The notes beneath the pieces are model-generated. The model did not search any database, was not told the DNA's origin, and was given only the letters and a program-made list of their open reading frames with translations. Made by a program: the position numbers and the translations under genes. This document shows positions 7,467 through 51,791 of a DNA stretch of 64,000 bases, one piece after another. The DNA is from Planctomycetota bacterium. Its GTDB lineage: Bacteria; Planctomycetota; B15-G4. How positions within the stretch are numbered: the first letter of the stretch is position 1; every line of letters starts with the position of its first letter. The stretch spans positions 212,252 through 276,251 of the forward strand of contig JBQTIY010000011.1 of the NCBI GenBank assembly GCA_052387675.1, written 5' to 3'.

Positions 7467-7482
7467 AGCAGCAAGGCACGCT

Positions 7483-24242: not shown

Positions 24243-24390
24243 GCGCGCTCAGTGCGCCGAGGATGGGCGCTGAGTGCGCCCGCGGCGGGGGCTCGGCGGT
24301 GCCGCTCAGACACCTCGCCGACTCGGCCGCTGCGGCCGAGAGGTCGGCTCGGAACTCGCGGCACACCGACACCCCGCCGCGTCGCACATC
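24242..24390 (+). repeat. interspersed structured intergenic repeat, copy C
   Basis: Begins at the fpr stop. It has the same twin hairpins and conserved core as copies A and B. Confidence 0.65.
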
Positions 24391-24433
24391 GCCGCATCTG
24401 CGGGCAGACAACGACGTTCGTACCGTTCAGTGG

Positions 24434-26074
24434 CTACGGCCAGTACTCGTCAGCTCCGATATCCACGCGACCGTACTCTCGACCCTCTCCTTCGATGTCG
24501 TAGGTGGTTAATGCGACAACCGGCGTGATGTCGCCCTTGGCAATGCATGGGGAGCCATACAGAATCGTGAAGTCGCCGGCGCCTGCATTGACGAAATCTG
24601 GATTCTCGTCAATGTTGAAGTACGGGGCCGAGGGCGGGTCAGTGGCACTTCCGAGGCACTCCCAGACGCAATAATCAATAAAGTCCGCTGAGCCCGGATC
24701 CCACTCCAGAGTGCCGTCGACCTGCTGGGTGCCGCCGTTACCGTACACAATCAAGTTCTGCATGTTGGCGTACGTAGTCGAGTCGCCATCGATCCAGAAC
24801 CCGGCGGCGCTGTTGTTCGCGATCGTGTCGCCCACGCTCTTCTGTCCTCCCTCCGAGCTGACGTCCTGGACGCCGCTGATGTGAATGCCAACAGTGTTCT
24901 GAACGATCAGGTTCCCCACCGTGTCCACGCTGATGTAACGACCCGCATCTCCGACGTCCCACGATCCGTAATCCAGGTGAAGCCCAGCGGCTCCATTGCC
25001 CCTGAGGGTGTTTTGCTCGATGTGACCTGTGGAGAAGTAGGCGTAACTGCTCTCGTCGTCATCGGTGTCCACCGTGGCGAGAATTCCGTCGCCAAGGCAT
25101 GCCTTGACCGTGTTGCCGATGATCTCGATCGTCGGCGTCGTGGCAAACCGCACCTGCTTGCCCTCGGCGCCTGCTGCGACGAATTCAATTCCTGTTTCGA
25201 TGCCATGACCCTCATTGCTGAGTGACGAGTCGATCGTGTTGCGCAGGATGAAGGGTGTGAAAATGGCATCAACGGGCACGATTCGACCGTCCCCGGCGAG
25301 CCGGATGCCGAACTCGGCATCGTCATCGCCCTCCAGCCCGATGATGTTCTCGCTGATGATGATGCGAGCCGAGGCATCACCCTCGCCGGTATCGGTCGTC
25401 CGCAGTTCGATTCCGCCGCGAGCCGTCGGCTCGATCCCATTATTGCTGATGTGGAAGGGGCCCTCGGAGTCACCGAGTTGGCCGTCACCAACTTCCAACA
25501 GGACCGAGGGTTGATCGGCACTCTCGCCATCGTTCATCTCACTGCGCTCGAAGTCGCAGGACTCGATGCTGCAGTCCGTCGCTGCGTTGCCGGAATCCAC
25601 GCGAACCAGTACCGCCGCTGGTGGGTCGAACTCTTCCTCATCCTCGGCTAGGAATCTGAGATTCTCGATGATGGTTCCATCGTGGCTCGCGGACGTTGCG
25701 TCGATGAAGACCAAGCCATACGAGCCAGAATCGGGCGGGTCTGCGTGGGCGTCGCCTCCCACCCTGGGCTTGTCACCGTCGTCATATGCCCTGACCCGAA
25801 CTCCACTTGGAATCACTAGGGGCCAGGACTCACCCAGCGCAGTGTTGTACGTGCCTGGCAAAACGACAATCTCGTCGCCGCTCACGGGCTCCCCTTCAAG
25901 CAATGCCTGCGTGATGGTCTCGTATGGATCAGCAAAGGAGCCAGTATGCGGAGCGGTGTCGTTGCTGTCATCGACATAGAAGGTCGTCGGCGTTGGCATG
26001 GCGATCAGGCCAACAGCGACCACGCCGACCCCAAAGCCGCACAGACTGATACCTAACTTGCTTAGTTGACGCAT
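24434..26074 (-). CDS. membrane-anchored right-handed parallel beta-helix (pectin-lyase fold) protein
   Basis: GGAGG SD before the ATG at 26074. N-terminal TM anchor. Repetitive G-N/D-rich beta-helix turns. Visibly lower GC than its neighbours. Confidence 0.7.
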   Translation of the reverse strand: MRQLSKLGISLCGFGVGVVAVGLIAMPTPTTFYVDDSNDTAPHTGSFADPYETITQALLEGEPVSGDEIVVLPGTYNTALGESWPLVIPSGVRVRAYDDGDKPRVGGDAHADPPDSGSYGLVFIDATSASHDGTIIENLRFLAEDEEEFDPPAAVLVRVDSGNAATDCSIESCDFERSEMNDGESADQPSVLLEVGDGQLGDSEGPFHISNNGIEPTARGGIELRTTDTGEGDASARIIISENIIGLEGDDDAEFGIRLAGDGRIVPVDAIFTPFILRNTIDSSLSNEGHGIETGIEFVAAGAEGKQVRFATTPTIEIIGNTVKACLGDGILATVDTDDDESSYAYFSTGHIEQNTLRGNGAAGLHLDYGSWDVGDAGRYISVDTVGNLIVQNTVGIHISGVQDVSSEGGQKSVGDTIANNSAAGFWIDGDSTTYANMQNLIVYGNGGTQQVDGTLEWDPGSADFIDYCVWECLGSATDPPSAPYFNIDENPDFVNAGAGDFTILYGSPCIAKGDITPVVALTTYDIEGEGREYGRVDIGADEYWP

Positions 26075-26142
26075 TGACCTAACCTCCAAGTCATCCGCTG
26101 CCTCATCGGCTCGAAGGATGACTGACTAGGGATTCCCGAAAC

Positions 26143-27924
26143 CTATGGAACTGCGCCATGCAGGATCGTGACATGGCCGCTGTTTGTGATTCCGAAGTCG
26201 TCTGCTGAGGCGACGCCTAGCACGAGCTCGATCGATCCGTCACCGTCCAGGTCGCCGAAGGCGTTGCGCTCGATACCGACATTGCAGAGCGGAACCTTGT
26301 CACTGATTCGGGCAAACGTCGCATGAAACGGCCCAAGTGCGACGAAAGTCATTCCCCCCGCCGTCAGAGAACAACCCTGCATCGGCCCGTCGAAATGGTC
26401 TGAGATCAGCAAATCCGTGATGCCGTCGCCACTCAAGTCTGCTGCCCCTAGCCAACTCCCAAAGTTGCTCTCACCGAAGGGGTTCTCGTAAAGCGATGGT
26501 GGCTTGGTCACCTTGAGATAGGACTCATAGTCCGGTCCGTAGTGAACGAAGGCCCGGTCCCGGTCGTCGTCGATGAGCAGATCCGTCGTGCCATCCCCAT
26601 CGAGATCGCCAACGCCCATGTGAATCCCGAAGGCTGTCCCCACGCCGAGGGGCTCGGGGCACTCGATGGTTCGAAAGAGTGTGAGGTCGGGACCCAAGTA
26701 AACGTGAGCGCTCCCGATGCTTTGCACACCGCCGATGTCGTCACCGCCTGAAGCTTCGAACAAGTCGTCGATCCCGTCGCCGTTGGCGTCGCCAACCGCA
26801 ATGCAGGAGCCAAAGCCGTGCCCGGCCTCGGGCGTAGGATTCGAGACCCAGATCGAGGAGGTGAAGTCGGGCCCCAGCAGAATGTCGACGCGGCCGGCCT
26901 CTCCAAAGCCCCCGACAGAAGCCTTGTTGATGCTGATGGCAACGTCGCCGTGTGAGTCGTTGTTGAAGTCCCCGATGGCGATGGCGTGCCCGTAGCCCGT
27001 GAACTTGATGCCGGTTCCTGGGCTGTGCAGGATCAGCGTGGGGACTCCTGTAGCGAGCGTTGCACCGCTATAGACGTAGAGCTTTCCGGGCAGGCCAGGC
27101 ACGGGCGGCGCACCAGCGGTTTCACCGATGATCAAGTCATCGAGTTCGTCTCCGTCGAGCCGACCGACTGTCATGCCGACACCAAAGAAACCGTAATAGT
27201 GCGGTAGCTCCGAGTAGAGTGCTGTGAAGTTCGTGTAGTCGGGGCCCCAGAGCACATAGGCAGCGCCGGAGTTTTGAATGCCGAGATAGTCCTCGCCCTC
27301 GGCGCAGCCAACGATGTCGCCGAAACCGTCGCCATTGAAGTCACCGACACCGACGGTGCGACCGAAAAGAGCTCGATCGGTGGGGTTGGGGTTGCTAATC
27401 ACCTGGCCCGTAGCCGGTGTCAAGTAGGGCTGGTCGAGCGGGAGCGTGGCCGGATTCGTCAGCGCACCCGGCACGAGCCCTTGCAACACGATGGGAATGC
27501 CGGAGAACAGCGGGTCAAGCAGCGGCAGCGTGATCGGCATGTCGATGCGGCCGCTCGGCGGAATGGCACCAAGAGCCAGGACGTTTAGGACTTGGCCGAT
27601 GTAGAACGGCCCCTTGGGTGTCCAGACGGGCGTGATGAGCGGCTGCAGGCCGTAGAGCAGCGCCGTGAAATGCCCCGGCGTGCCGGAGAAGTGCAGCGTC
27701 AGTTCGCCTTCAGAGAAGGGCTCACCCTGGATCTGCAGCAGAGGGGCATCCTGCGCCCTGCTGGCGGGAACTAGGGCACTAAACACCACGAGAAGCGCCG
27801 CCCACAGTCCACGTTGCACGAAGTCTCGCCGCAGCGACGGAGGCCCCCCCGCCTTCCCTTGCGGAGCACCCATGACGGAAAGCCTACAGCAATCGGCTCT
27901 CGACTGCTCCTGGGAAAGCATCAT
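26143..27924 (-). CDS. secreted FG-GAP repeat (integrin-alpha-like beta-propeller) protein
   Basis: Seven repeats of the type GDFNGDGFGDIV, GRLDGDELDDLI, GDANGDGIDDLF, GDLDGDGTTDLL, and others. SLRRDFV lies ahead of the hydrophobic segment and is Tat-like. The start is uncertain (27924 or 27873). Confidence 0.75.
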   Translation of the reverse strand: MMLSQEQSRADCCRLSVMGAPQGKAGGPPSLRRDFVQRGLWAALLVVFSALVPASRAQDAPLLQIQGEPFSEGELTLHFSGTPGHFTALLYGLQPLITPVWTPKGPFYIGQVLNVLALGAIPPSGRIDMPITLPLLDPLFSGIPIVLQGLVPGALTNPATLPLDQPYLTPATGQVISNPNPTDRALFGRTVGVGDFNGDGFGDIVGCAEGEDYLGIQNSGAAYVLWGPDYTNFTALYSELPHYYGFFGVGMTVGRLDGDELDDLIIGETAGAPPVPGLPGKLYVYSGATLATGVPTLILHSPGTGIKFTGYGHAIAIGDFNNDSHGDVAISINKASVGGFGEAGRVDILLGPDFTSSIWVSNPTPEAGHGFGSCIAVGDANGDGIDDLFEASGGDDIGGVQSIGSAHVYLGPDLTLFRTIECPEPLGVGTAFGIHMGVGDLDGDGTTDLLIDDDRDRAFVHYGPDYESYLKVTKPPSLYENPFGESNFGSWLGAADLSGDGITDLLISDHFDGPMQGCSLTAGGMTFVALGPFHATFARISDKVPLCNVGIERNAFGDLDGDGSIELVLGVASADDFGITNSGHVTILHGAVP

Positions 27925-27929
27925 GGATG

Positions 27930-27938
27930 CCCCCCCCC
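27930..27938. repeat. homopolymeric C9 tract (G9 on the coding strand)
   Basis: Read directly from the sequence. It lies 5 nt upstream of the ATGATG at 27924/27921. A second C7 tract lies at 27844-27850. Confidence 0.9.
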
Positions 27939-28279
27939 GCGTAACCTGACATTGCGGTCGCCAGAGCGGCTGCGGGTGACGCACTTTGCCCCAGGCCAGC
28001 GGGCGCCACCCCTGGCGTTGTCGCTGCCTTCGTCATGAAAAGGCTCCCGAAGCCGAAACGGCTAAGCCCACTTCGCACAAGGCGGGTAAGCGAACCGTCA
28101 CGAGCGCTGGTGTAATCCCACTCCCCAAATTTCCGCAAGGGGGAAAATTCGTGGGAGGCGAAGTTGTTATCGACTTTCTCGCTCCAGCCGGTCGTTCCCT
28201 GATCAGGTCGGCCGCGGAACGACGCTGGCGCTTTGACCCGCAGTGAAACCCCGTGGCCGCCGCAGAGCGGAGCCGCGAC

Positions 28280-35480: not shown

Positions 35481-37469
35481 TTAGAAGCCGGTTGTGCGCG
35501 GCTTGGCCGTGCGCGCCGCGTTCATCTCTTCGGGCGTGAGCCGGTACATGCGGATCGTGTGACCGATCATGAACTCCGGCTGCTTGTCGGCTAGGAAGGC
35601 ATAGGCCTCGGGCATGCGGAGCTGGAGCGCCAAGTGCACCGCCACCCAGGGCTGCTGCGGAGTGTCGAGATTCTGTCCGCCGAAGATCGGCCGATAGCGC
35701 ACGCCCCAGACCTCGGGATCGCCCTCGGTGTACGGGTCGTAATAGATCCAGTCCGGCTCGTCCGGCTCGTCCGGCGCGCCGGGCGCGACTTGCGCGCGTG
35801 TGCGACTGGCCATCCAGCGCCCGAGGCGCGCCGTGTCCTGGCCCCAGTCGTCGCCGATGATCGACCAGCGCCAGCCGTTCTCGGGTCCGCCCACCCACTC
35901 GTTGAAGTACATGTGGTTCTGCGGCTGGCGCGCGAGGCTGGCGAGGCTGGCCCAGAGCACGAGCACGCCAACGGCGGACATCGTGGGCGCGGCGGCGGCC
36001 GGCGCGCGGCCGGCGCGGAAGAGCAAGGCCGCGGCCACGAGCGGAACGATGAGCGTCAGTTCATGACGGAGGTGCCAGGCTCCCGTGTCGCCGAAGCCGA
36101 AGCGGCCGAGCAGCGCCGCGAGCACGAGCAGCGCGACGGCCAAGCGCCGTTCGCCGCGGCCGAGCAGCGAGGGATCGGCAAAGCGACTGGCCGCCACGGC
36201 GAAGAAGGGCACGACCGGCAGCGCGTACTTGAAGCCAAGCTGCACATCGCCCAGTGAGAGGAAGGCCAGCAGCAGCAGGGGATAGAGCCAGAGCGCCGCT
36301 TCGTGGAGCGCTCCTCGCCAAGCGCGCCACAGCGCCAGCAGCGAGAGCAGCAGCAAGAGCGAGAAGCCCTCGGGATTCTTGATCAGCCAGCTCAGCGCGA
36401 AGAACTCGGGCGCGCCCTGCTTGCTCACCTCTCCGCGCCAGTAGTTGCTGTGCCCCGACTCGGCGTGCTCGGTCTGATGATCGAAACCCTTGAGCAGCGA
36501 GAGCAGCGGAATGGGCTGGTCGCTGCCGAAGACGCGCTGCAGTCCGCTCTCGAGCGCCTCGTTGTGGAAGACGCGGCCGTCGGCGCCCTTGAGTCCGAAG
36601 CGCGGATGCACGCGCGCTTCGGCGAGCGAACGGGCCTCGCCGAGATAGAGCAGCCAGAGCACACCCAAGGCGGCGGCCCCGCCCACAAAGGCCCAGCCCA
36701 GCAGCGCCGGCCGGCGCCAAGCCAGCGCGGCGACCAGCACGATGAGCCCGAAGACCGGCAGGAGCATGAGCGCACTGAGCTTGCTGCCGAGGGCCAGACC
36801 AAGCATCAAAGCGCAGAGCAGCAGGTGTCGCTTGGCTCCGGCTGGCAACGGGCCCTGCCGCTCGCCGTGCAGCCAGCGCCAGAGATGGAAGCAGGCGAGG
36901 AAGCCGAAGACCGTGAGCGCGAAATCGTTGCCGGCGGTCGTGGCGTGCGCAATGAGATTGGGATTGAGCGCGGCGAGCGCCAGCGCCACGAGCCCGGCCG
37001 AGCCGCCGAAGGCCAAGGCCGCCCAACGCCAGACGTAGAGCAGCAGCAGCACGCCGAGGACCAGTCCGGGCAGACGCGCGAGAAAGAGCATCGTGGCCGC
37101 GCTGGCCCGCGGCTGATGCGCGAAGAACTGGAACTCGATGCCGGGCCGCACTTGGTAGTCGGGCGGCAGCTCCAGGTCGAGAGCCAGCAGCGGCAGCGCC
37201 AGCAGATACTTGGCCAGCGGCGGGTGCTCGCGGTTGAACGAGAGGTCGCCGGTGACGAGGTAGCTGTACCCGCTGAGCAGATACATCGGCTCGTCGTAGG
37301 CCTCGGAATCGGAGGCCGCCCGCCAGGCGCCGAGCACCACAAAAAGCAGGACGAGCATCGCAACGAGCCAGCGGTGCTGGCCTGCTGGCCGCTGATCGAC
37401 CGGTTGCGGCGGCGCTGGTGGCGGGGCCTGCGCTGACGTCCCGGCCGGATTGCTCGCCGCCTCACTCAC
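35481..37469 (-). CDS. GT39/ArnT-like (PMT_2) polyprenol-phosphate-dependent glycosyltransferase
   Basis: Sequence DEPMYLLSGYSYL...REHPPLAKYLL. More than 10 TM helices. GTG start. Confidence 0.8.
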   Translation of the reverse strand: MSEAASNPAGTSAQAPPPAPPQPVDQRPAGQHRWLVAMLVLLFVVLGAWRAASDSEAYDEPMYLLSGYSYLVTGDLSFNREHPPLAKYLLALPLLALDLELPPDYQVRPGIEFQFFAHQPRASAATMLFLARLPGLVLGVLLLLYVWRWAALAFGGSAGLVALALAALNPNLIAHATTAGNDFALTVFGFLACFHLWRWLHGERQGPLPAGAKRHLLLCALMLGLALGSKLSALMLLPVFGLIVLVAALAWRRPALLGWAFVGGAAALGVLWLLYLGEARSLAEARVHPRFGLKGADGRVFHNEALESGLQRVFGSDQPIPLLSLLKGFDHQTEHAESGHSNYWRGEVSKQGAPEFFALSWLIKNPEGFSLLLLLSLLALWRAWRGALHEAALWLYPLLLLAFLSLGDVQLGFKYALPVVPFFAVAASRFADPSLLGRGERRLAVALLVLAALLGRFGFGDTGAWHLRHELTLIVPLVAAALLFRAGRAPAAAAPTMSAVGVLVLWASLASLARQPQNHMYFNEWVGGPENGWRWSIIGDDWGQDTARLGRWMASRTRAQVAPGAPDEPDEPDWIYYDPYTEGDPEVWGVRYRPIFGGQNLDTPQQPWVAVHLALQLRMPEAYAFLADKQPEFMIGHTIRMYRLTPEEMNAARTAKPRTTGF

Positions 37470-37536
37470 CGAGCAGATGCTCGCACACGCGACGCGGACC
37501 CGGAAGCCCGCGCCGCGTGTGCGCCTTGCTCAGCGC

Positions 37537-38505
37537 TCAGTTCTGCGGATGCAGCGCGGCCAGCTCGGCGGCGCGCGTGCCGCTCGGCGTGCCTTGGTAC
37601 TTCTTGGCGATGCTCGCGTAAGACTTCACGGCCTTCTCCAGGTCGCCCTTGCGGAAGGTCGACATGGCTTCCTGCAGCTTGTCCCAGGCGGCCAATTCGT
37701 TCTTGGCCTCCTTGTTCTTCAGCAGGGCCTCGGCCGCCGCCTTCGCCGCCTCGGCTCCCGGCACGCTCACGAAGAGACGTGCAATCTCTTCATAGCGCCC
37801 AAGCGCCTCACCGTAGGCATTGCCCTCAGCCTTGGCCTTCGCTTCGCCGAGACGCGTTTCGAGCAACGCTGTGATGGCGCCCTGAGCCGCCTTCGCCACA
37901 GCGTCCTCCTGGTTCTTCACCAGGTGCTTAGCGAGAGCTGCCCAAGCCTTGCCGAAGGCTCGCTGTGCGAGCAATTCATTGATGGCCTCGTAGTCGCCGG
38001 CCAACGGCGGAATGACATCGACGTCCTTCAGCGCCTCCGTGATGAGCTCGTCGTCGAAGTTGCCCGGATGACCGGACCACACGACGAAACCCTTGGCATC
38101 AATGAGGTAGGCAGACGGGAAGCCTGCCACGCCGTACTGGCGGTCGAAGTCCTCGCCAGAAACCATGGCGATGGGAAAACGCATCTTCTTCTTGACGGCG
38201 TCTTTCGACACCAAACTGTCGGGTTCGTTGGTCACGCCAACGACCACAAGCCCCTGCGGCCCGAACTTTTCAGAAATCTTGTTCAGGTGCGGAACTTGTG
38301 AGGTGCAAGGGCCTCACCAGGTACGCCAAGCCTCGATGAAAACAAGCCGTCCGCCCAGGTCGCTCAAGCTGCCTTTGGAGCTGGAGTGATTGATCCACGT
38401 GGCCTCGAAGTCCGGGGCCACGCTGCCAACCTTGACTGTCACGTCGTCGCTGCTGGGAGCAGCAGCGAGGGCCGTGAGGGCGGCAGCCGCGATGAGCATA
38501 CGCAT
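37537..38505 (-). CDS. TlpA/ResA-like thioredoxin-fold protein with TPR-like C-terminal domain; in-frame TGA (38314-38316) read as selenocysteine in a UGPC motif
   Basis: ORFs 38314..38733 and 37537..38247 are in the same frame. The junction translates as FIEAWRTW-TGA-GPCTSQVPHLN, so the TGA sits at the first Cys of WCGPC. GAGGAG SD before the ATG at 38505. Signal peptide present. Confidence 0.7.
38245..38316 (-). promoter_or_regulatory. candidate bacterial SECIS region downstream of the UGA
   Basis: Hand-folded. Outer stem CACAAG/CUUGUG, inner stems UUCC/GGGG and CCUGAAC/GUUCGGG, 14-nt apical loop starting about 37 nt after the UGA. Not verified computationally. Confidence 0.3.
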
Positions 38506-38720
38506 GAGCGATCTCCTCGGGGGAATGCCGGAGCGCTCACGATCCGAGGGACCACGACGGCCCTCGCCATCCGAGCACTTGGGGGCCCACGCTACGCGAA
38601 TGCCTAGGGGTGTCAAGCAAGAAGGCTGCTCCGTGGCGCTTGCTAAGATCGCTCGCAGGAATCCGGTTCCTGCGCGGCCTCTCACGCCGCTCTTCAGCAC
38701 CCGCACCCGAGAGATGACTG

Positions 38721-39122
38721 ATGCCCTCCGCAAACCATGGCCCGTCCGGACCCTTGAAGGCCGTCGCCGTGATCGGCGCCTCCGCCGACCGCAGCAAGTT
38801 CGGGAACAAGGCCGTGCGCGCCTATCAGCGGCAGGGCTGGACGGTCTACCCGGTGCACCCCAAGCTCAAGGAAGTTGAGGGCCTGCCGGCCTTCGCCTCC
38901 GTGCGCGGGCTGCCCGGTCCGGTGCAACGCATCGCCATCTATCTGCCGCCGGAACTCGGTCTCAGCGTGCTGCCCGACATCGCCGCCACGCCGCACGAAG
39001 AGTTCTTTGTGAACCCGGGCGCGGAGAGCGGCCCGCTGCTCGCCGCAGCGCGCAAGCTGGGCCTTGCCCCGCTGGAAGCCTGCGCCATCGTGGACGTGGG
39101 CGTCAGCCCCGCTTCGCTCTAG
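38721..39122 (+). CDS. CoA-binding domain protein (YccU/YneT-like)
   Basis: Sequence KAVAVIGASADRSKFGNKAVRAYQRQGWTVYPVHP... Confidence 0.85.
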   Translation: MPSANHGPSGPLKAVAVIGASADRSKFGNKAVRAYQRQGWTVYPVHPKLKEVEGLPAFASVRGLPGPVQRIAIYLPPELGLSVLPDIAATPHEEFFVNPGAESGPLLAAARKLGLAPLEACAIVDVGVSPASL

Positions 39123-39156: not shown

Positions 39157-40029
39157 TCAGAGCCCCGCGAAGGAAGGCGAGCGCCAGAGCGCCACGCCCA
39201 GCGCGGCGACAAGGCAAGCGCCGCCGAAGGCCCAGGCGCCGACACGCCACGCTCCAGATCTCAGGGCCGCTGCGCCTTGCGGGAGCAGCGCCGGAACGAG
39301 CGGCGCGGCGGCCAGCAGCACGGCGCTGGCGGCGGGCAACTCGGAGACATGCAGTCCGGCGAGTGTCAGCGCGAAGAGGACCAGCACGAAGACCGGCTGC
39401 GCCGCGGCGAGTCGCGGCGTGCGCCAGTGCAGCCAGCCCAGCACGAGCACGGCACCGGCCGCGGCCGTCAGCGCACCGGCCAAACGCGCCTGCTGCTCGC
39501 TGCCCGATAGGCCCAGGCAGGCCGAGAGCGTCAGGCAGAGCGCGAAGTTGCCGACCGCGCTGGCCGTTTCGTCGCGCACCGCAGTGCGTTCCTGCGCCCA
39601 GAACACCACGGCTGCGAGCAGGATGGGAAGAGCCAGCGCGAAGAACACTGCCAGCAACGTCGGGTCGGTTGCCGCAGCCTTCAGTACACGCCGAATCGCC
39701 GGTCCGGCGAGCGTGTAGGCCACCACGCCCGCCACTGTGATGCGCACAACCCAGCCCAGCGCGCGCGGAGCCCGGCGCGTGAGCGCCGTGCCGCCCAGCA
39801 CCACGCCGAGCAGGGCCGCGAGCGGCACCCAGTCCACTGCCGAGCGCGGCGACCACCCGCGCCAGCCGGTCAGGACGTAATGGCCGGCTAGGTAGCCGGC
39901 CCCGACCGCGAGCGCGAGGAGCCAGTCGCCGAAGCGACCGGCCGGCCGCCACCGCGTGAGCAAGAGCAGCGCTCCGGCAAGCAACGCCGGCACGAGCGCT
40001 CCCGGCAGCAGATCCACGAACTCTGGCAC
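39157..40029 (-). CDS. hypothetical polytopic membrane protein (290 aa)
   Basis: 8-9 hydrophobic helices. GTG start. No family recognised. Confidence 0.5.
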   Translation of the reverse strand: MPEFVDLLPGALVPALLAGALLLLTRWRPAGRFGDWLLALAVGAGYLAGHYVLTGWRGWSPRSAVDWVPLAALLGVVLGGTALTRRAPRALGWVVRITVAGVVAYTLAGPAIRRVLKAAATDPTLLAVFFALALPILLAAVVFWAQERTAVRDETASAVGNFALCLTLSACLGLSGSEQQARLAGALTAAAGAVLVLGWLHWRTPRLAAAQPVFVLVLFALTLAGLHVSELPAASAVLLAAAPLVPALLPQGAAALRSGAWRVGAWAFGGACLVAALGVALWRSPSFAGL

Positions 40030-40066
40030 GAGCGCGCTCTCGCTGCTCCCGTTCGGCCGCCGCCGC

Positions 40067-40753
40067 TCAGCCCTTGGCTCGCGCCTCGAGGGAGACGATG
40101 ACGTGCACGTCTTCGCCGAGTGAACCCGGGCCGTAGCTCACGTCGAACTCGCTGCGCTGGATCGTGAACGTGACCTCGAAGCCGATGAAGGAGTTGCCCT
40201 TGTCGTCGCGCGCGGCACCTGTGCGCTCGGCCTTGGCCAGGACGCTCTTGGTGACGCCACGCAGAGTGAGATCACCCTGGACGTCGTAGTGCGTGTCGTC
40301 GACCTTCGTGACCTTGGTGCTCTTGAAGACGATTTCGGGGAACTCTTTAGCCGAGAAGAAGTCCGGGCCGCGCAGGTGCTGGTCGCGCTTCTCGTTGTTG
40401 CTGTCGACGCTCTCCGCCGGAACGGTGACTTCCACTGAGCTGCCGGCCGCGTCCTGCTCGTCCAGCACGAAGTGGCCGCTCAGTTCGTTGAAGCGGCCGT
40501 AGAAGTTGGCCAAGTCCTTGTGACGCACCTTGAAGACCATCGAGGAGTGCACTGGATCGATGTCGTAGCGCAGGGGCTTGAGCGCGGCGGCCGCGGCCGG
40601 TGCGCTGAGCGTCGGCGCGGTGAGCGTCGGCGCGGCGACGAGCAGCACCGGTTGGGCAGCCGCAGCGGCAGCGCGGGCGCGCAACACGAGCGCGGAGGGC
40701 AGCACGACCACGGCCAGAAGCACGACGATCAACACGGGAAGTCGGCGAAACAT
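40067..40753 (-). CDS. YceI family periplasmic protein
   Basis: Signal peptide followed by YDIDPVHSSMVFKVRHKDLANFYGRFNELSGHF. Confidence 0.85.
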   Translation of the reverse strand: MFRRLPVLIVVLLAVVVLPSALVLRARAAAAAAQPVLLVAAPTLTAPTLSAPAAAAALKPLRYDIDPVHSSMVFKVRHKDLANFYGRFNELSGHFVLDEQDAAGSSVEVTVPAESVDSNNEKRDQHLRGPDFFSAKEFPEIVFKSTKVTKVDDTHYDVQGDLTLRGVTKSVLAKAERTGAARDDKGNSFIGFEVTFTIQRSEFDVSYGPGSLGEDVHVIVSLEARAKG

Positions 40754-40912
40754 GGGACACCTCGGTCAGCGGGAAACGGGAAGCGGGATCGAAGGGAGGC
40801 CTTGATAGCCTTGGATCCCATGACTGTCCCCGATGCAGGACCCGCTGTGCAACGCCGACCCCGGCCAAGCGCGCTCCGGCCGGCCTGGCGCCGCCTCGCG
40901 GCGACAGCCTGA

Positions 40913-41878
40913 ATGCGTGGCCTGGTCATCGAGCGCGGCCGGGTCACGCTGCGCAACGACCTGCCCGAGCCCGTGCCCCCGCCGGGCGAGAGCCTGGTGC
41001 AGGTGCTGCTGGCCGGCATCTGCGCCACCGACCTGGCGCTCGCGCGCGGCTACATCGGCTTTGCCGGCGTGCCGGGCCACGAGTTTGTGGGACGCGCGCT
41101 CAGCGGGCCGCTGGCCGGCCAGCGCGTGGTCGGCGAGATCAATGCGGGCTGCGGACGCGCCGAGTGCCCCGAATGCCGGCGCGAGGATCCGCGCCACTGT
41201 CCAAGGCGCACGGTGCTCGGCATTCTCGGGCGCAGCGGCGCCTTCGCCGGGCGCCTCGTGCTGCCCGACCGCAACTTGCACGCTGTGCCTGACTCGGTGA
41301 GCGACGAGCAGGCCGTCTTCGCCGAGCCCTGGGCGGCCGCTCTGCACGCTGCGGAGCAGTTGCCCGCCGTGCGAGGCCAACGCGTGCTGGTCGCAGGCGA
41401 CGGACGCCTCGGCCTGCTCTGCGCGCACGCTCTCGCGCGGGCCGGCGCGCACGTCACCGTGGCCGGGCGTCATCCCGAGCGCACGGCGCTGCTGCCGGCC
41501 GGTGCGCGCTTGGTCACTGGGTGGCTTGAAGCTGAAATCGCCGACGGCCGCACCGATTCGTTCCCATACGCGGTGGAAGCGACGGGCCGCCCCGAGACGC
41601 TCGCGCGCTTGCTGGCGCGCGTCGCGCCGCGCGGCACGATCGTGCTGAAGACGACCTGCGAAACTCCCGCTCCGCTCGATCTGGCGCCGCTCGTCGTGAA
41701 CGAGCAGGCCCTCATCGGCAGCCGCTGCGGCCGCATGGCGCCCGCGATTGCGGCGCTGCGCGACAATCCGCCGCCGATTGCAGCTTTTGGCGCCGAGCGT
41801 TTTCCGCTGAGCGACGCTGTCGCTGCGCTGGCCCACGCGAGCAAGCGCGGCGTGCTCAAAGTCTTGCTCGACGTGTGA
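40913..41878 (+). CDS. zinc-binding alcohol dehydrogenase family (MDR) oxidoreductase
   Basis: Sequence GICATDLALARGYIGFAGVPGHEFVG and a Cys cluster GCGRAECPECRR. Confidence 0.85.
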   Translation: MRGLVIERGRVTLRNDLPEPVPPPGESLVQVLLAGICATDLALARGYIGFAGVPGHEFVGRALSGPLAGQRVVGEINAGCGRAECPECRREDPRHCPRRTVLGILGRSGAFAGRLVLPDRNLHAVPDSVSDEQAVFAEPWAAALHAAEQLPAVRGQRVLVAGDGRLGLLCAHALARAGAHVTVAGRHPERTALLPAGARLVTGWLEAEIADGRTDSFPYAVEATGRPETLARLLARVAPRGTIVLKTTCETPAPLDLAPLVVNEQALIGSRCGRMAPAIAALRDNPPPIAAFGAERFPLSDAVAALAHASKRGVLKVLLDV

Positions 41879-41894
41879 CGCACTCATGTGCGGG

Positions 41895-41937
41895 CCGCGC
41901 CCGCGCTGAAAAAAACTCGCCGCGCGGGGGCGGTTTT
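41895..41937 (+). terminator. candidate intrinsic terminator
   Basis: CCGCGCCCGCG ... CGCGGGGGCGG pairs 10 of 11 positions and is followed by TTTT, 17 nt after the stop. Confidence 0.45.
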
Positions 41938-42034
41938 GCTGGTCAGGCGCGCCGATCCTGCCTAGGGTGCGAGTCGAGTCGCGCGCAACGCCGGCTCGCG
42001 CACCACTGAGCCCGCGCAACACTGAGGAGGCCGC

Positions 42035-43447
42035 ATGGTCACCGCGTCCCCCCGCGGCATCACGCCGCGCACCTACCGCGCCTACACCCGCAAGGATCTC
42101 GAACGGATCCCGCAGTTGCAGAGTCTGAGCCCCGAGGCTCGGCTCGAAATGCAGGCCGTCTCGGCCGTGCTGCCCTTCAAGGTGAACAGCTACATCATCG
42201 ACCGGCTGATCGACTGGGAGGACATTCCCGACGATCCCATCTTTCAGCTCACTTTTCCGCAGGCCGGCATGCTCGAGCCGCAGGATCTGCGGCGCATGGT
42301 GCGCCTCGTACGCGAAGAGGCTTCAGATAAGGCCGTGCAGGAGGCCGCGCGCCGCATTCAGCGCCGGCTGAATCCTCACCCAGCCGGCCAGCTCGATCTC
42401 AACGTGCCGCAGCTCGACGGCGAGCGCCTGCCGGGCTTTCAGCACAAGTATCGCGAGACGGTGCTCTTCTTTCCGCAGCAGGGGCAGACCTGCCACGCCT
42501 ACTGCACCTACTGCTTCCGCTGGGCGCAGTTCGTGGGCATCGACGAACTGAAGTTCGCGCAGCGCGAGGCCTCCACGCTGGCGAACTACGTCGCTGTGCA
42601 CCCGGAAGTGCAGAGCGTGCTCTTCACGGGCGGCGACCCGCTCATCATGAAGAGCAGCTTGCTGCGCCGCTACATCGAGCCATTGCTCGCGCCGGAGCTT
42701 GAGCACTTGGTGAGCATCCGGCTCGGCACTAAGTCCACCACCTACTGGCCCTACCGCTTCCTCACCGACCCGGATGCCGACGACCTGCTGCGGCTCTTCG
42801 AGAGCGTCGTACGAGCCGGCCATCACCTCTCGATCATGGCGCACGTCAGCCATCCGCGCGAGTTGGAAACGCGCGAAGCGCAGATGGCCGTCCGGCGCAT
42901 CCTGCGCACCGGCGCCGCCGTGCGCTGCCAAGCTCCGCTCATCCGGCACGTGAATGACAGCGCCCGCCTCTGGAGCGAGATGTGGCAGGCTCAGATCCGG
43001 CTCGGGGCGGTGCCGTACTACATGTTCGTCGAGCGGGACACCGGCCCCAAGGGCTACTTCGACGTGCCGCTCGCGCGCGCCTTCGAGATTTACACGCGCG
43101 CTACGCGGCGCGTCTCAGGGCTGGCGCGCACCGTGCGCGGACCGTCCATGTCGGCGACGCCCGGCAAAGTCGTGGTCGATGCCGTGGCCGACGTGGCCGG
43201 CGAGCAGGTCTTCGTGCTCAAGTTCCTGCAGGCCCGCGACCCGGCCTGGGTGAATCGCGTCTTCTTCGCCGCCTTCGATCCCGCGGCGACCTGGCTCACC
43301 GACCTGCGGCCCGCCTTTGGTGAGCAGGAGTTCTTCTTCGAACCGGCAATGGAAGCGCTGCGGCGTCAGGGCGGACAGTCGGCCTGGGGTCAGCCGCCGG
43401 GGCGTCGCGCAAAGGCTTCGCAGTTCGGCCACGTGGAGTGGGAGTAG
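42035..43447 (+). CDS. KamA family radical SAM protein (lysine 2,3-aminomutase-like)
   Basis: GAGGAGG SD. CHAYCTYCFRWAQ (CxxxCxxC) in a KamA-like context. Confidence 0.85.
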   Translation: MVTASPRGITPRTYRAYTRKDLERIPQLQSLSPEARLEMQAVSAVLPFKVNSYIIDRLIDWEDIPDDPIFQLTFPQAGMLEPQDLRRMVRLVREEASDKAVQEAARRIQRRLNPHPAGQLDLNVPQLDGERLPGFQHKYRETVLFFPQQGQTCHAYCTYCFRWAQFVGIDELKFAQREASTLANYVAVHPEVQSVLFTGGDPLIMKSSLLRRYIEPLLAPELEHLVSIRLGTKSTTYWPYRFLTDPDADDLLRLFESVVRAGHHLSIMAHVSHPRELETREAQMAVRRILRTGAAVRCQAPLIRHVNDSARLWSEMWQAQIRLGAVPYYMFVERDTGPKGYFDVPLARAFEIYTRATRRVSGLARTVRGPSMSATPGKVVVDAVADVAGEQVFVLKFLQARDPAWVNRVFFAAFDPAATWLTDLRPAFGEQEFFFEPAMEALRRQGGQSAWGQPPGRRAKASQFGHVEWE

Positions 43448-43492
43448 CTCGCGGTGGAGTGGGAGTCGTCGCGCGCGGCGAGGCCGGGTCCC

Positions 43493-44767
43493 TCAGACCG
43501 CCTCGCCCGCTGCTGCGCCGGAGGCCCAGGCCCACTGGAAGTTGAAGCCGCCCAGCCAGCCGGTCACGTCGACGACCTCGCCGATGAAGTGCAGGCCGGG
43601 GACTTCGCGAGCCTCAAGCGTGCGTGAGGAGAGTGCGCGCGTGTCGACGCCGCCGAGCGTGACCTCGGCCTTGGCGTAGCCGGCGTCGGCGGCGGGCCGC
43701 GCGCGCCAGTCGGAAAGCAGGCGCGCCGCCGCCACGAGGTCTTGATCGGCGCACTGGCCGATCGGGCGCTCGCTGGCCAAGAGAAGTCGCGGCGTGGCCG
43801 CGGCCGCGCCCGCGCCCACCCCCACGCCCGGGCCGGCGCCCTCCAGCAGCACGTCGATGAGGCGCCGGGGCAGGCTCTCGGCCAGCACGTTGCGCAAGCT
43901 CATCGCCCCGCCCGCGGCACTGCCGGCCGACTTGCGTGCACGCAGCGCGGCGAGGAGGTCTTCGTCGGGGCGCCAATCGATGCTGAGTTCGCTGCCCGGC
44001 CGCCACACATTGCTGATCTGCAAGATCGCAGGCCCGGAGAGCCCGTCGTGCGTGAAGAGCACGTTCTCCAGAAAGCTCGCGCCCGCGCAGCGCACGCGCG
44101 CGAAGACGGCGATGCCGGCCAGCGGGCCGTAGCGCGCGCGATCGGGGCCGCTCCACAAGAGTGGCACGAGGCCGGGGCGCGACGGCACGAGCGGCAGGCC
44201 GAACTGCCGCGCGAGGCGATAACCGAAATCGCTCACGCCGAGCCGCGGCCAGGCGAGTCCACCCGTGGCCACGACAAGCGAGGAGCAGGTGAGCTCCTGT
44301 CCGCCAGCCGCGACCAGAAAGCGCGAGGCATCGGAGGCTGCGCCATCCAGCCGGCGCACGGAGTGCACCTCGCAGCCGGTGCGCAACTCGACACCGGCCT
44401 GCTCGCATTCGTCGAGCAGCAGCCCGAGGATGCGCTTCGCCGAGTCGTCGCAAAAGAGCTGGCCCCATTTGCGCTCGTGGAAGGGCAGGCCGTGGGCCTC
44501 GACGAGTTGCAGGAAGTCCTCGGGCCCAAAGCGCGCCAAGGCCGAGCGCGGGAAGTCGGCGTTGCCGGTGTGAAAGTTTTCGGCCCCGACGCGCCGGTTG
44601 GTGAAGTTGCAGCGGCCGCCGCCGGAAACCAGGATCTTGAGCCCCGGGCGCGCGTTGCGCTCCAGCACCAGCACGCGCCGGCCTCGCCGCGCGGCCACGC
44701 GCGCGCACATGAGCCCGGCCGCGCCCGCGCCGAGGACGATCACATCGTGCTGCTGCGGAAGCGTCAT
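43493..44767 (-). CDS. HI0933/BaiN-like NAD(P)/FAD-dependent oxidoreductase
   Basis: ATG at 44767. Sequence DVIVLGAGAAGLMCA...VSGGGRCNFTN. Confidence 0.85.
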   Translation of the reverse strand: MTLPQQHDVIVLGAGAAGLMCARVAARRGRRVLVLERNARPGLKILVSGGGRCNFTNRRVGAENFHTGNADFPRSALARFGPEDFLQLVEAHGLPFHERKWGQLFCDDSAKRILGLLLDECEQAGVELRTGCEVHSVRRLDGAASDASRFLVAAGGQELTCSSLVVATGGLAWPRLGVSDFGYRLARQFGLPLVPSRPGLVPLLWSGPDRARYGPLAGIAVFARVRCAGASFLENVLFTHDGLSGPAILQISNVWRPGSELSIDWRPDEDLLAALRARKSAGSAAGGAMSLRNVLAESLPRRLIDVLLEGAGPGVGVGAGAAAATPRLLLASERPIGQCADQDLVAAARLLSDWRARPAADAGYAKAEVTLGGVDTRALSSRTLEAREVPGLHFIGEVVDVTGWLGGFNFQWAWASGAAAGEAV

Positions 44768-44847
44768 GATCTCGAGGGGAGGGCCGCGAACGGGGACTCG
44801 CCCGCGTCGCGCCGTTTCGCTACGTTGCCGGCCCCCCGGAGCATCGC

Positions 44848-46395
44848 ATGATCCGACCGTCCTTCGCCGCACTGGTCTGCCGGCACCTCACTTCGCGCGT
44901 CGCGCTACTGGCCCTGTCGCTCGCGGCACTCACGGGCTGCGGCGCTCCTAGCCACAGCGCTCCCACTAAGGGCGCGCCAGCCGCGCCCGCAGCCAGCGGC
45001 GCCCCGCAGGCCGCCGCCGAGACAGACGACCTCACAGTGCTTGAGCTTGTAACACTGGGCAAAATGGAAGCGCTGGGCTACATGCAGGCAGCGACGCAAG
45101 TGGGTGCCGATCAGAGCGTGTTTGCCGCTCAGCGCCAACCACAAGGTCCCGTGGCCTTCGTCGGCGCGCGCCTTCTGCCCATCAGCGCGCCCCCCATCGA
45201 GAACGGCGTGCTGGTCATTGATGACGGGCGCATCGTGGCGCTCGGGCCGGCCGGTTCGGTGAGCGTGCCTGCCGACGCGACGCAGATTCCTTGCCACGGC
45301 CTCACGCTCATGCCTGGACTCGTGGACACGCACTCGCACATCGGCGGCGGCTGGGGCGCCGACGAGAGCGCACCGATTCAGCCGGACGTGCGGCTGCTCG
45401 ACGCCATCGACGTGCGCGACGCCACGATCCAGCGCGCGCAGGCCGGCGGCATCACGACCGCCAACCTCATGTCGGGCAGCGGTCACCTCATGAGCGGCCA
45501 AACCGCCTACCTCAAGCTGCGCGACGCGAACACGATCGAGGAGCTGCTTTACTGGAGCGCGGACGGCCTGCCGCTGGGCGGCATGAAGATGGCCAATGGA
45601 ACGAACAGCCAGCGCAGCGCGCCCTTCCCCGGCACGCGCGGCAAGTCGGCGGCGCTGGTGCGCGAGCAGTTCGTCAAAGCCCTGAGCTACCGCGACAAGC
45701 TGCAGCGCGCCGGCGACGACGCCGAGAAGCGCCCCGAGCGCGACCTCGGCCTGGAGGCCCTGCTGGAAGTCCTCGATGGCCGGCGCATGGTGCATCACCA
45801 CACGCACCGCCACGACGACATCCTCACCGTGCTGCGCTTGCAGCAGGAGTTTGGCTTTCGCGTCGTGCTGCACCACGTCAGCGAAGGCTGGAAAGTGGCC
45901 GACGAGATCGCTACGGCCGGCGTGGGCAGCTCGCTCATCATGATCGACAGCCCCGGCGGCAAGCTCGAAGCGATGGACTTCGACATGAGCACGGGCGCTG
46001 CGCTGGAGCGCCGCGGCGCGGCCGTGGCCTTCCACACCGACGACTGGATCAATGACAGCCGGCTCTTCCTGCGCAGCGCCGCGCTGGGCGTGCGAGGCGG
46101 GATGTCACGCGAGGGCGCCCTGGCCGCGCTGACGATCAACGGCGCGCGCATGCTGGATCTTCAAGACCGCATCGGCTCGCTGGAAGTCGGCAAGGACGCC
46201 GATCTCGTGCTGCTCAACGGCGACCCGCTGGCCCTGCGCACAGCCGTCGTGCAGACCTGGGCGGCGGGCGAGCTGGTCTTCGACGACAGCGATCCGCGGG
46301 ACCACCTCTGGGCCGTGGGCGGCTGGGGCGCCGGCCGGCAGCGCGCTGCCGGAGAACAAAACCTCTGCTGCTTCGGTGATCGCGAGGAACAGTGA
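44848..46395 (+). CDS. amidohydrolase family lipoprotein
   Basis: Lipobox ALTGC. Sequence PGLVDTHSHIGG. Metal-dependent hydrolase architecture. Confidence 0.8.
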   Translation: MIRPSFAALVCRHLTSRVALLALSLAALTGCGAPSHSAPTKGAPAAPAASGAPQAAAETDDLTVLELVTLGKMEALGYMQAATQVGADQSVFAAQRQPQGPVAFVGARLLPISAPPIENGVLVIDDGRIVALGPAGSVSVPADATQIPCHGLTLMPGLVDTHSHIGGGWGADESAPIQPDVRLLDAIDVRDATIQRAQAGGITTANLMSGSGHLMSGQTAYLKLRDANTIEELLYWSADGLPLGGMKMANGTNSQRSAPFPGTRGKSAALVREQFVKALSYRDKLQRAGDDAEKRPERDLGLEALLEVLDGRRMVHHHTHRHDDILTVLRLQQEFGFRVVLHHVSEGWKVADEIATAGVGSSLIMIDSPGGKLEAMDFDMSTGAALERRGAAVAFHTDDWINDSRLFLRSAALGVRGGMSREGALAALTINGARMLDLQDRIGSLEVGKDADLVLLNGDPLALRTAVVQTWAAGELVFDDSDPRDHLWAVGGWGAGRQRAAGEQNLCCFGDREEQ

Positions 46396-47702: not shown

Positions 47703-48406
47703 GCGGCGCAGGCCTGCTCAAGGAAGATCTCTTCGGCCGCGTCGAGCGTATTGAGCACGACGGCCGGCCCGCGGTGCAGCGCGACATCTCGGGCGTGCGT
47801 TGGTGGATCGCGCCGCTGGCACGCTGGATGCTGCGCCGCGAGGCGCGCGCGCTCGCCGCGCTGGCCGCCGCCCCTCCGCATCTGCAAGCGCGCTTGGCCG
47901 GCTCGCTGCCGCAGCTTGTCGAACTGCGCCGCGACGGCCTGCTGCGCTCCTGGCTCGACGGACGCCCAATGCAGAAGGCCCAACCGAGTGAGGCGCACTA
48001 CTACCGCGAGGCACGCCGCCTGCTCTGCGCGCTGCACTCCGCGGGCATCACTCACAACGACGACGCCAAGGAGCAGAACTGGCTCGTGCTGAATGACGGC
48101 CGGCCCGCGCTGATCGACTTTCAGCTCGCGGTGCTCAGCTCGGCGCGGCGGTGGAACGCCGGTGAGCAGCCGACCGGCCGCGCGCGCAGGCGCAGCCGCT
48201 TCTTCCGCCTGCTGGCGCGCGAGGACCTGCGCCATCTCTGCAAGCACAAGCGCAAGTACTGCCCGCGGGCCCTCACGCCCCGCGAGCAGCGCCTCTTGGA
48301 GCAGCCCTCGCGCGCTGCGCGCCTGCTGCGCGCCGGCCCCAAGCGCGCCTACAGCTTCGTCACGCGCCGCCTGCTCGGCTGGCGCGACGACGAGGGCCGC
48401 GGCTAG
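47699..48406 (+). CDS. protein-kinase-like fold protein (RIO / Kdo-LPS-kinase-like)
   Basis: TTGA overlap with the upstream stop. Catalytic-loop-like LHSAGITHNDDAKEQNWLV...ALIDFQLA. Confidence 0.55.
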   Translation: MSGAGLLKEDLFGRVERIEHDGRPAVQRDISGVRWWIAPLARWMLRREARALAALAAAPPHLQARLAGSLPQLVELRRDGLLRSWLDGRPMQKAQPSEAHYYREARRLLCALHSAGITHNDDAKEQNWLVLNDGRPALIDFQLAVLSSARRWNAGEQPTGRARRRSRFFRLLAREDLRHLCKHKRKYCPRALTPREQRLLEQPSRAARLLRAGPKRAYSFVTRRLLGWRDDEGRG

Positions 48407-48473
48407 ATCCTTCCCCCCGCGTGAACTGGGTCGCGCGCGAGCCGCGCCGAGCGCTCTGGGCAGCGCCTTTGCT

Positions 48474-49274
48474 ATGCTCCGGCGCTTCATGGCCACTGCA
48501 ACTCACGGCGCGCCCGAAGACAACAAGCTCGCGCTGTTCATCGACATGGACAACGTGGTCATCGGCGTGCGCGATGCGCGCTTCGACAAGTTCGACATCG
48601 AACTCGTGCTGGCGCGCCTGGTCGAAAAGGGCGACCTCATCGTGAAGAAGGCCTACGCCGACTGGTCGAACCACACCACCTACAAGCGGCCGCTGCATGA
48701 AGCGGCCATCGAGCTGATCGACATTCCCGAAAGCCGGCGCACCGGCAAGAACAGCGCCGACATCAAGATGGTCGTGGACGCCATGGAGCTGTCCTACGCC
48801 AAGCCGCACATCGACACCTTCGTGCTGGTCTCAGGCGACAGCGACTTCTCGCCGCTGGTGAGCAAGCTGCGCGAGAACGGCAAGCACATCATCGGCCTGG
48901 GCGTGAAGAACAGCAGCGCGCGCCTGCTGATCGACAATTGCGACGAGTTCGTTTTCTATGACGACCTCGTGCGCAGCAAGCCGCGCCGTCGCTCGGTGGC
49001 GGCCGGCGCCGGCGTGACCCAAGAGAAGCAGGAGGCCTTCGCCCTGCTCATGGAGACGCTGGCCGCCCTGCAGCGCGAAAACAAAGACGTGCTCTGGGGC
49101 TCGCTGGTCAAGGACACCATGAAGCGCAAGCAGCCGCAGTTCAACGAGGAGTACCACGGCTATTCCTCGTTCGGCAAGCTGCTCGAGGACGCCGAAAAGC
49201 ACAAGCTCATCCGCCTGCGCAAGGACAGCCGCAGCGGCACCTACGTGATCGACGAGGTGCTGGAGAGCGCGTAG
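48474..49274 (+). CDS. NYN (LabA-like) nuclease domain protein with C-terminal OST-HTH/LOTUS domain
   Basis: Sequence LALFIDMDNV...GKNSADIKMVVDAME...FVLVSGDSDFSPLV. The C-terminus ...WGSLVKDTMKRKQPQFNEEYHGYSSFGKLLEDA fits the LOTUS domain. Confidence 0.8.
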   Translation: MLRRFMATATHGAPEDNKLALFIDMDNVVIGVRDARFDKFDIELVLARLVEKGDLIVKKAYADWSNHTTYKRPLHEAAIELIDIPESRRTGKNSADIKMVVDAMELSYAKPHIDTFVLVSGDSDFSPLVSKLRENGKHIIGLGVKNSSARLLIDNCDEFVFYDDLVRSKPRRRSVAAGAGVTQEKQEAFALLMETLAALQRENKDVLWGSLVKDTMKRKQPQFNEEYHGYSSFGKLLEDAEKHKLIRLRKDSRSGTYVIDEVLESA

Positions 49275-49275
49275 G

Positions 49276-51717: not shown

Positions 51718-51791
51718 AGTTGGGCGCGAAGTCGCCGGCGGGGCGAGAGGGCTGGGGCTACACTGGCCGCCCTCAACTTGGAACCCGCACC

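Follow-up and report, generated by a model that had tools for sequence, protein, structure and literature searches.

Within a 64,000-nucleotide stretch of a Planctomycetota bacterium (contig JBQTIY010000011.1, positions 212,252 to 276,251; this whole stretch is referred to as the window and is numbered from its first letter), the minus strand carries a gene at 37537..38505 that is interrupted by one in-frame TGA. We read it with good confidence as a single gene for an exported ResA/TlpA-like oxidoreductase, which contains a catalytic selenocysteine (Sec) in a W-U-G-P-C motif, carries a TPR-like tail, and is decoded through a selenocysteine insertion sequence (SECIS) composed of two hairpins, H1 and H2. 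From the comparison of homologous sequences, we consider it very probable that the gene encodes a selenoprotein, and probable that H1 and H2 jointly constitute the recoding element. The assignment of H2, as opposed to the apex of H1, as the site bound by SelB is only slightly favoured.

The complete selenoprotein coding sequence (37537..38505, minus strand) comprises 322 amino acids including U64. A minus-strand ATG at 38505 (start codon 38505..38503) opens a frame of 323 codons, which is closed by the gene's own stop, a TGA at 37539..37537. The sole interruption of this frame is the TGA at 38314..38316 (minus strand, read as 38316..38314), the proposed Sec codon of the U-G-P-C motif. An earlier sequence-only reading of this DNA had noticed that two open reading frames (ORFs), 38314..38733 and 37537..38247, share one frame and are parted by a single TGA, and this frame was confirmed on the minus strand. 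The peptide that it quoted across the TGA, ...LVFIEAWRTW-U- and onwards, was reproduced exactly; translated with the stop in place it reads ...LVFIEAWRTW-*-GPCTSQVPHLNKISEKFGPQGLVVVGVTNEP..., with U64 flanked as ...AWR / TW-U-GPCTSQVPHLNK. The Shine-Dalgarno-like sequence GAGGAG of the same reading, read directly from the DNA, is present on the minus strand at 38513..38518, separated from the ATG by a 7-nt spacer. The resolving Cys of the UxxC motif is encoded by a TGC at 38305..38307 (minus strand); this Cys is invariant, and TGC is used in 19 of 20 genes. Elsewhere, UGA acts as an ordinary stop, ending the gene itself as well as many coding-like ORFs of the window, and a scan of the whole window for further in-frame TGA candidates returned antisense artefacts only.

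The interrupting TGA is shared by homologous genes. A protein search recovered 17 close relatives, 15 of which are called as ORFs of 207-249 amino acids that start a few residues past the active site, while P0002 (316 amino acids) is a full-length relative with an intact WCGPC. Here, P0002 and P0015 denote homologous proteins and labels beginning with L denote homologous loci, P0002 being the protein of L026. The DNA of the homologues was gathered by exact protein identity, by a pattern search covering one genome per species, and by a pattern search in metagenomes. In every shortened case, a TGA closes an upstream ORF of 60-63 amino acids that shares its frame with the downstream one, and read-through restores ...W[RQA]TW-U-GPC.... 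The public gene calls consist of ORFs of 60-63 and 235-249 amino acids in every contig looked up, bearing out the expectation that gene callers would split or truncate the gene. TGA occupies the Sec codon in 21 distinct genes of clade A (34-95% identical to the window protein) and in 9 more distant genes of clades B and C (~30% identity). It is also found in the tandem paralogues of L016 and L017, which are two paralogues beyond the 30 distinct genes. TAA or TAG was found at this codon in none of the 30 genes and 2 paralogues. A different stop or a frameshift in homologues, named in the sequence-only reading as a sign of a pseudogene or a sequencing error, did not appear: close and distant homologues carry TGA, and their frames are free of other stops and of frameshifts.

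The 30 genes with TGA originate from metagenome-assembled genomes (MAGs) of Planctomycetota and from metagenomes, assembled independently in different studies and from different habitats. As the TGA stands at the same codon in all of them, its position cannot be attributed to chance. Conserved residues both upstream and downstream of the TGA vary freely at synonymous sites, which indicates that both halves of the gene are under purifying selection at the protein level; the UGA is thus kept in orthologues with coding constraint on either side. The genome records of the homologues are almost all Planctomycetota MAGs. One contig, L010 (JBLIMM010000017.1), is labelled Pseudohongiellaceae, and its gene sequence and layout are near-identical to those of the Phycisphaerales MAG L008. 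With all other carriers being Planctomycetota, this contig is probably mis-binned.

Homologues with Cys at the Sec position, with which an alignment had been recommended, exist: P0002/L026, the second copy of L013, and the Verrucomicrobiota loci L019, L020 and L036. In these five proteins, U64 is matched by the first Cys of WCGPC, and in the solved structure of ResA (4nmu) by the N-terminal Cys of WCKPC, so that the TGA sits at the nucleophilic Cys, where it had been placed from the sequence. Some loci hold tandem copies of the gene. In L013, a Sec copy and a Cys copy lie side by side (L013:9077 and ~10193), and two Sec copies with the motifs WATW-U-GPC and WKIH-U-EPC are found in L016 (10187/11248) and L017 (10187/11247).

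Structurally, the predicted protein consists of a hydrophobic N-terminus, a thioredoxin-fold domain and a helical C-terminal domain. The N-terminus, MRMLIAAAALTALAAAP (38455..38505, minus strand), has an equivalent in all homologues and is taken from its composition to be a signal peptide or a membrane anchor; of the signal peptide claimed earlier, the hydrophobic N-terminus was recovered, and hydrophobicity is the extent of what was seen. The ResA/TlpA-like thioredoxin-fold (Redoxin/AhpC-TSA) domain spans amino acids 25-146 (38068..38433, minus strand) and is identified by Pfam, NCBIfam, PDB and Foldseek comparisons, in agreement with the thioredoxin fold that had been claimed. With Cys substituted for the in-frame stop, the window protein matches PF00578 (67.3 bits, E 1.5e-18) and PF08534 (60.5 bits, E 2e-16), both above the gathering threshold. 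Among solved structures, ResA 4nmu comes closest (E 1.2e-18), and its WCKPC aligns with W-[TGA]-GPC. The thioredoxin fold, the W-U-G-P-C motif and a conserved GFPSAYLID place the protein among the TlpA-like/ResA-like proteins (cd02966). Assignment to the peroxiredoxins (AhpC/TSA proper) was considered and rejected, as the motif WxxW-U-GPC is of the CxxC type without TxxC/U, whereas peroxiredoxins have their peroxidatic Cys or Sec in PxxxTxxC/U, and as ResA, TlpA and DsbE, not a peroxiredoxin, lead the matches to curated families and solved structures.

The C-terminal all-helical TPR-like domain comprises amino acids ~160-322 (37540..38028, minus strand) and ends in a conserved AKKY..TP[SA]G..AAEL. 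Its assignment draws on the homology of the tail to the curated family NF041382 and on an AlphaFold2 model of the Cys homologue P0002 (pLDDT 81), which stands in for the window protein. In this model, residues 1-30 are unstructured and are followed by the thioredoxin fold and by eight C-terminal helices (pLDDT 87-95). A Foldseek search with the model returned ResA and DsbE (target TM 0.74-0.79). The TPR-like tail of the sequence-only reading is therefore retained as an eight-helix domain, although none of the Pfam TPR models is significant on the window protein. Judged from these features, the product would be an exported thiol-disulfide oxidoreductase of the ResA/TlpA type, with Sec64 as the attacking nucleophile and Cys67 as the resolving residue. 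The helical tail is likely a protein-interaction module.

The second of the two hairpins, H2, is conserved in clade A down to its synonymous sites. It is a 19-nt hairpin, UCGUUGG-CGUGA-CCAACGA, at 38225..38243 (minus strand), corresponding to columns 74-92 when columns are counted from the U of the UGA in an ungapped alignment of the Sec genes, and is the proposed SelB-binding core of the SECIS. The codons GTC GTT GGC GTG ACC AAC (V V G V T N; columns 73-90; 38244..38227) are identical, synonymous sites included, in 19 of the 21 Sec genes, and the genes sharing this block are otherwise only 34-60% identical. In the remaining two genes (L046 and L050), the sole changes within the 18-nt block are the paired substitutions U78->C and A88->G. 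Here, a change of Asn to Asp (GAC) is matched by the Val codon GTC, so that a U-A pair is replaced by a compensatory C-G pair. The codon entropy is 0 at positions +24, +26, +27, +28 and +29 and 0.47 bits at +25 (GTT 18, GTC 2), compared to ~1.0-1.9 bits at most other conserved four-fold sites of the gene. GTT is rare at 69% GC, yet it is used wherever the pairing partner is AAC. Within the loop, C81 and G84 are unpaired, synonymous and invariant, which argues for recognition of the sequence itself and not merely of the structure.

In H2, a stem of 7 bp is capped by the loop CGUGA, the second and third bases of which are G-U. The hairpin has a folding energy of -8.2 kcal/mol or lower, and its loop starts 77 nt past the UGA in the linear sequence. 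Across the Sec genes, H2 is paired to 100% and the lower stem of H1 to 84%, whereas slid controls reach at most 47%. Two other accounts of H2 were rejected. An exact copy of H2 occurs once per locus and once in the window, which excludes a repeated genomic motif; and ascertainment bias from the pattern-based locus search is countered by the loci found through protein identity, which show the same codons, and by the Cys homologues found with the same peptide patterns, which use other codons. Inspection by eye also covered pairing of H2 with the UGA region and a pseudoknot joining its loop to columns 16-19; in neither case are the partner bases conserved, and both ideas were dropped.

H1 differs from H2 in that its stability, and not its sequence, appears to be maintained. 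It is a sequence-variable hairpin of 58 nt at 38244..38301 (minus strand; columns ~16-73), proposed to be a spacer or pausing helix of the SECIS. According to minimum free energy folds of the individual sequences, the sequence, apical loop and register of H1 differ among the Sec genes. H1 is nevertheless more stable than synonymous-codon shuffles of the same region in 17 of 20 Sec genes (p <= 0.03; mean z -3.0), while none of the five Cys controls shows excess stability in the same test (z +0.5 to +1.4 and -0.8). Compensatory changes are seen in the lower stem. In the window, the 96 nt that fold as H1+H2 reach -38.7 kcal/mol (z -2.9). The first 67 nt past the UGA fold unremarkably when taken alone (z -0.96); the signal emerged with the homologues and the 96-nt region.

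A natural control is provided by P0002/L026, a Cys homologue that is nested in clade A and is 61% identical to the Sec protein P0015. It keeps the residues V-V-G-V-T-N but encodes them as GTC GTG GGC GTC ACG AAC, with which H2 cannot form, and it has no excess H1 stability. The loss of both the H2 codons and the H1 stability in this gene ties both features to the TGA.

The bacterial SECIS (bSECIS) model requires a loop of 3-9 nt with G as its first or second nucleotide, a distance of 16-37 nt from the UGA to the loop, and a folding energy of -7.5 kcal/mol or lower (PMC13188914, PMC10778597). H2 passes every one of these rules but the spacing. With its 19 nt and its position in the coding region downstream of the UGA, it resembles the minimal SECIS of E. 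coli fdhF; it differs from the canonical bacterial element, as represented by fdhF and the bSECISearch consensus, in that its loop lies 77 nt past the UGA and a selected 58-nt hairpin fills the gap. The sister clades follow the conventional layout. Genes of clades B and C have a short G+C-rich hairpin with a GGU, GUU, AGGU or GGUC loop at columns ~20-27, the canonical position, and most of them place the G-U of a Val codon at columns 22-23. A consensus fold of these clades by RNAalifold was meaningless since the hairpin registers differ, and per-sequence folds were used instead.

We postulate that SelB would deliver Sec-tRNASec to the UGA at 38316..38314 under the guidance of the two-hairpin SECIS, with H2 as its binding site. 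H1 begins ~13 nt past the UGA, which would correspond to the mRNA entrance when the UGA occupies the A site, and once folded it could set H2 beside the ribosome. If H1 is skipped in the count, G82-U83 of H2 would come to lie at an effective position of 24-25, compared to 23-24 in fdhF, where the G-U is G23/U24, and 22-23 in the sister clade. H1 may in addition pause the ribosome at the UGA. H2 is proposed as the SelB element and H1 as its carrier on account of this effective position, together with three published points: a SECIS usually has 6-8 bp in its stem and is located close to the mRNA entrance (PMC4605307), SelB binds the SECIS ahead of the arrival of the ribosome (PMC5311926), and a 19-nt minimal SECIS remains functional when grafted onto helix h16 of the 16S rRNA (PMC10945757), from which it follows that spatial proximity is what matters. 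Whether clade A uses a previously undescribed class of SECIS, with H2 ~75 nt downstream of the UGA and brought to the mRNA entrance by a selected, sequence-free 58-nt H1, through spatial and not linear proximity, we regard as an even bet.

Several observations weigh against this interpretation. In a simplified implementation of the bSECIS rules that admits perfect stems only, no hairpin in the window gene fits the model, and only 2 of 20 clade A genes fit it, with a spacing at the far end of the range (36-37 nt). In L008, L010 and L028, three marine genes, H1 is weak; its covariation is modest, and its register differs between subclades. The amino acids V-G-V-T-N/D partly favour H2 by themselves, and in the Verrucomicrobiota Cys homologues L019 and L036 preferred codons alone suffice for a hairpin resembling H2 (GUCGG-CGU[CG]A-CCGA[UC], at L019:5788 and L036:1291), which could have arisen by chance where the gene is rich in G+C or be left over from an earlier Sec state. 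Finally, neither selA, selB, selD nor tRNA-Sec was found in the 64-kb window (Pfam on 30 window genes, Rfam and ARAGORN), and no Sec machinery was found in the ~20-kb flanks of 21 related loci, which were also searched for tRNA-Sec with ARAGORN. Rfam at gathering thresholds over the whole window, and with permissive settings over 37400..38800, returned chance matches but no SECIS or tRNA-Sec.

The capacity of the source genome to decode Sec is therefore assumed. Several Planctomycetes carry the full selA/B/C/D set (PMC4807772), and further Sec candidates near the gene in related MAGs lend indirect support (L018 and the tandem Sec paralogues of L013, L016 and L017). The L018 candidate lies 8 kb from the family member of a Planctomycetota MAG, on the plus strand at L018:2291. 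It is DsbD-gamma/thioredoxin-like, contains ...FYLPG-U-GPC... and a TPR tail, and has a hairpin (loop CGCACA) that starts 22 nt past the UGA. Two planctomycete 'thiol-disulfide isomerase-like thioredoxin' Sec candidates have been listed without a SECIS by bSECISearch (PMC4807772 Table S9). Such a result would be expected if they are of the same type as clade A.

Three other explanations bear on these data. The gene could be a selenoprotein gene in which SelB binds the apex of H1, whose loop lies ~38-44 nt past the UGA, with H2 as an accessory such as a clamp at the H1 base or a pausing signal. Selection on H1 stability speaks for this arrangement, as do the many apical loops with G in the first or second position (GGCAGA, GUAC, GGGA, AGGC, GCAG) and the two genes that formally satisfy the bSECIS model through H1. 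However, the H1 loops are conserved in neither sequence nor size, L008, L010 and L028 are nearly devoid of an apical stem, the spacing exceeds 37 nt in most genes, and the invariant, unpaired and synonymous bases of the H2 loop would be left unexplained. We therefore judge the H1 apex a rather unlikely SelB site, and prefer H2 in this role. A stop codon created in a normal Cys gene by pseudogenization or by a sequencing or assembly error finds its sole support in the splitting of the gene in every automatic annotation. The identical TGA in 30 independently assembled genes from various studies and habitats, the conservation of amino acids with synonymous divergence on both sides, and the lack of further stops or frameshifts exclude a pseudogene and a sequencing error for practical purposes, leaving this explanation a negligible probability.

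The UGA could also be recoded without Sec, either by near-cognate read-through with Trp or Cys or by SelB-delivered Cys, or it could be a regulated stop that yields a 63-amino-acid peptide and an internally initiated C-terminal protein, with H1 and H2 as a generic stimulator of read-through or pausing. A strong hairpin ~13 nt past a stop codon is the layout of known read-through and frameshift stimulators. Such a mechanism would also agree with the lack of Sec machinery in the sequence examined, that is, the window and the flanks of the related loci. Against it, no stop other than TGA is seen, and it invariably falls on the nucleophilic Cys of a CxxC redox motif, which is the signature of Sec/Cys pairs (PMC1088965). 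A C-terminal fragment would have neither strand beta1 nor the active site. In its size and its xGUxx loop, H2 matches a minimal SECIS (PMC13188914), the sister clades possess canonical SECIS-like hairpins, and further Sec candidates lie close by in related genomes. As a whole, these points render recoding without Sec, or a regulated stop, quite improbable, and we retain Sec insertion guided by H1 and H2 as the interpretation of the gene.

The replacement of Cys by Sec in thioredoxin-like motifs, rightly described in the sequence-only reading as an established class, has been catalogued for UxxC TlpA-like, Prx-like and redoxin selenoproteins since 2005 (PMC1088965, PMC1794560, PMC13188914). The present protein accordingly adds to a known class a member that is new or, at the least, not yet curated. 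It shares with these families the fold, Sec in place of the N-terminal Cys of CxxC, widespread Cys homologues and prediction through Sec/Cys pairs. In contrast, it has a ~165-amino-acid helical tail, is concentrated in Planctomycetota and, unlike what is reported for them, has no canonical SECIS, a distinction that is drawn from the descriptions of these families only. Among Cys proteins of the ResA, TlpA and CcmG (DsbE) type, ResA is the best match, and W-C-x-P-C, the hydrophobic N-terminal anchor or signal and the 'GxPxxxLID' cis-Pro region are held in common. The window protein differs from them by Sec for Cys, by the extra helical domain, and by NCBIfam scores below the cut-offs (ResA 82.9 vs 170; TlpA 38.3 vs 230; DsbE 35.2 vs 123). 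Its neighbours are CoA_binding_2 and PMT_2 genes instead of genes for cytochrome-c maturation or copper chaperones.

Two curated families of thioredoxin-like selenoproteins were also compared. NF041054 ('ResA-like WAxxUGC motif-containing protein') gives 44.6 bits on the window protein and 20.9-46.5 bits on five other members against a cut-off of 300. NF041382 ('VPGUxxT family thioredoxin-like (seleno)protein, type 1') gives 22.1 bits on the window protein, and 22-64 across members, against 350. The match to NF041382 is confined to the tail (amino acids 180-316), where the helical domains are homologous (E 7.8e-5 in the window protein; among the clade B/C homologues the lowest value is 1.4e-17, in L037). 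The motif W[RQA]TW-U-GPC is neither WAxxUGC nor VPGUxxT, and in seven family members that were scanned, namely the window protein and six others, every NCBIfam model stayed below its cut-off.

The extent of the family was estimated by an exhaustive search with the C-terminal ORF as query, in which 746 representative clusters match at E <= 1e-3. Among the best 150 clusters (at 50% identity), 118 start 3-26 residues past the Sec site. The other 32 include this site, and a crude alignment places Cys there in 15 of these. The TGA was present in every shortened member whose DNA was read, and it is therefore probable that most of the family consists of Sec forms, which public annotation divides in two.

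The genomic surroundings of the gene are conserved as well, consisting of a divergent CoA_binding_2 gene, the selenoprotein gene and, usually, a PMT_2 glycosyltransferase gene downstream. Just past the stop codon and ahead of the PMT_2 gene, a very stable, near-perfect hairpin with a 19-bp core is located at 37467..37535 (minus strand; -53.4 kcal/mol, z -5.6). It abuts the putative GTG start of the PMT_2 gene and is without a U-tract; the permissive Rfam search over 37400..38800, which includes it, gave spurious miRNA-precursor matches only. This hairpin may be a terminator, an attenuator or a repetitive extragenic palindromic (REP)-like element, and it is not part of the recoding signal. Further away, the window is syntenic over long ranges (39157..46395 and 48162..52736) with Planctomycetota MAG contigs (L003, L046 and L048). 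The genes involved encode YceI, a 290-amino-acid membrane protein, a zinc alcohol dehydrogenase (Zn-ADH), an HI0933-like flavoprotein, two amidohydrolases, and NYN and BON domain proteins, and this synteny assigns the window to the lineage of JBBQUR01 (Co_metawrap_1940). The G+C content is 0.62-0.63 in 1..8000 and 24000..28000 and 0.67-0.72 elsewhere; the stretch 24000..28000 encodes DUF1565 and FG-GAP repeat proteins, and both low-G+C stretches may have been acquired horizontally.

For specialists, the surprising part is the proposed two-hairpin, distal SECIS, the protein type itself being of modest interest. H2 at 77 nt is a testable candidate for one of the 'distinct classes of bSECIS' that are said to exist but have not yet been described (PMC13188914), and the natural switch from Sec to Cys within clade A serves as a control. 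If the proposal is true, SECIS searches restricted to 16-37 nt would systematically miss such genes, and the codons directly after the Sec codon could be freed of SECIS constraint in engineered or recombinant selenoproteins. For annotation, the public calls cut most forms of the protein in two and lose the active site, as seen in the 118 shortened clusters among the best 150. In Planctomycetota, the predicted exported Sec oxidoreductase outnumbers its Cys form by about 4:1, which suggests that a redox function of the cell envelope depends on selenium.

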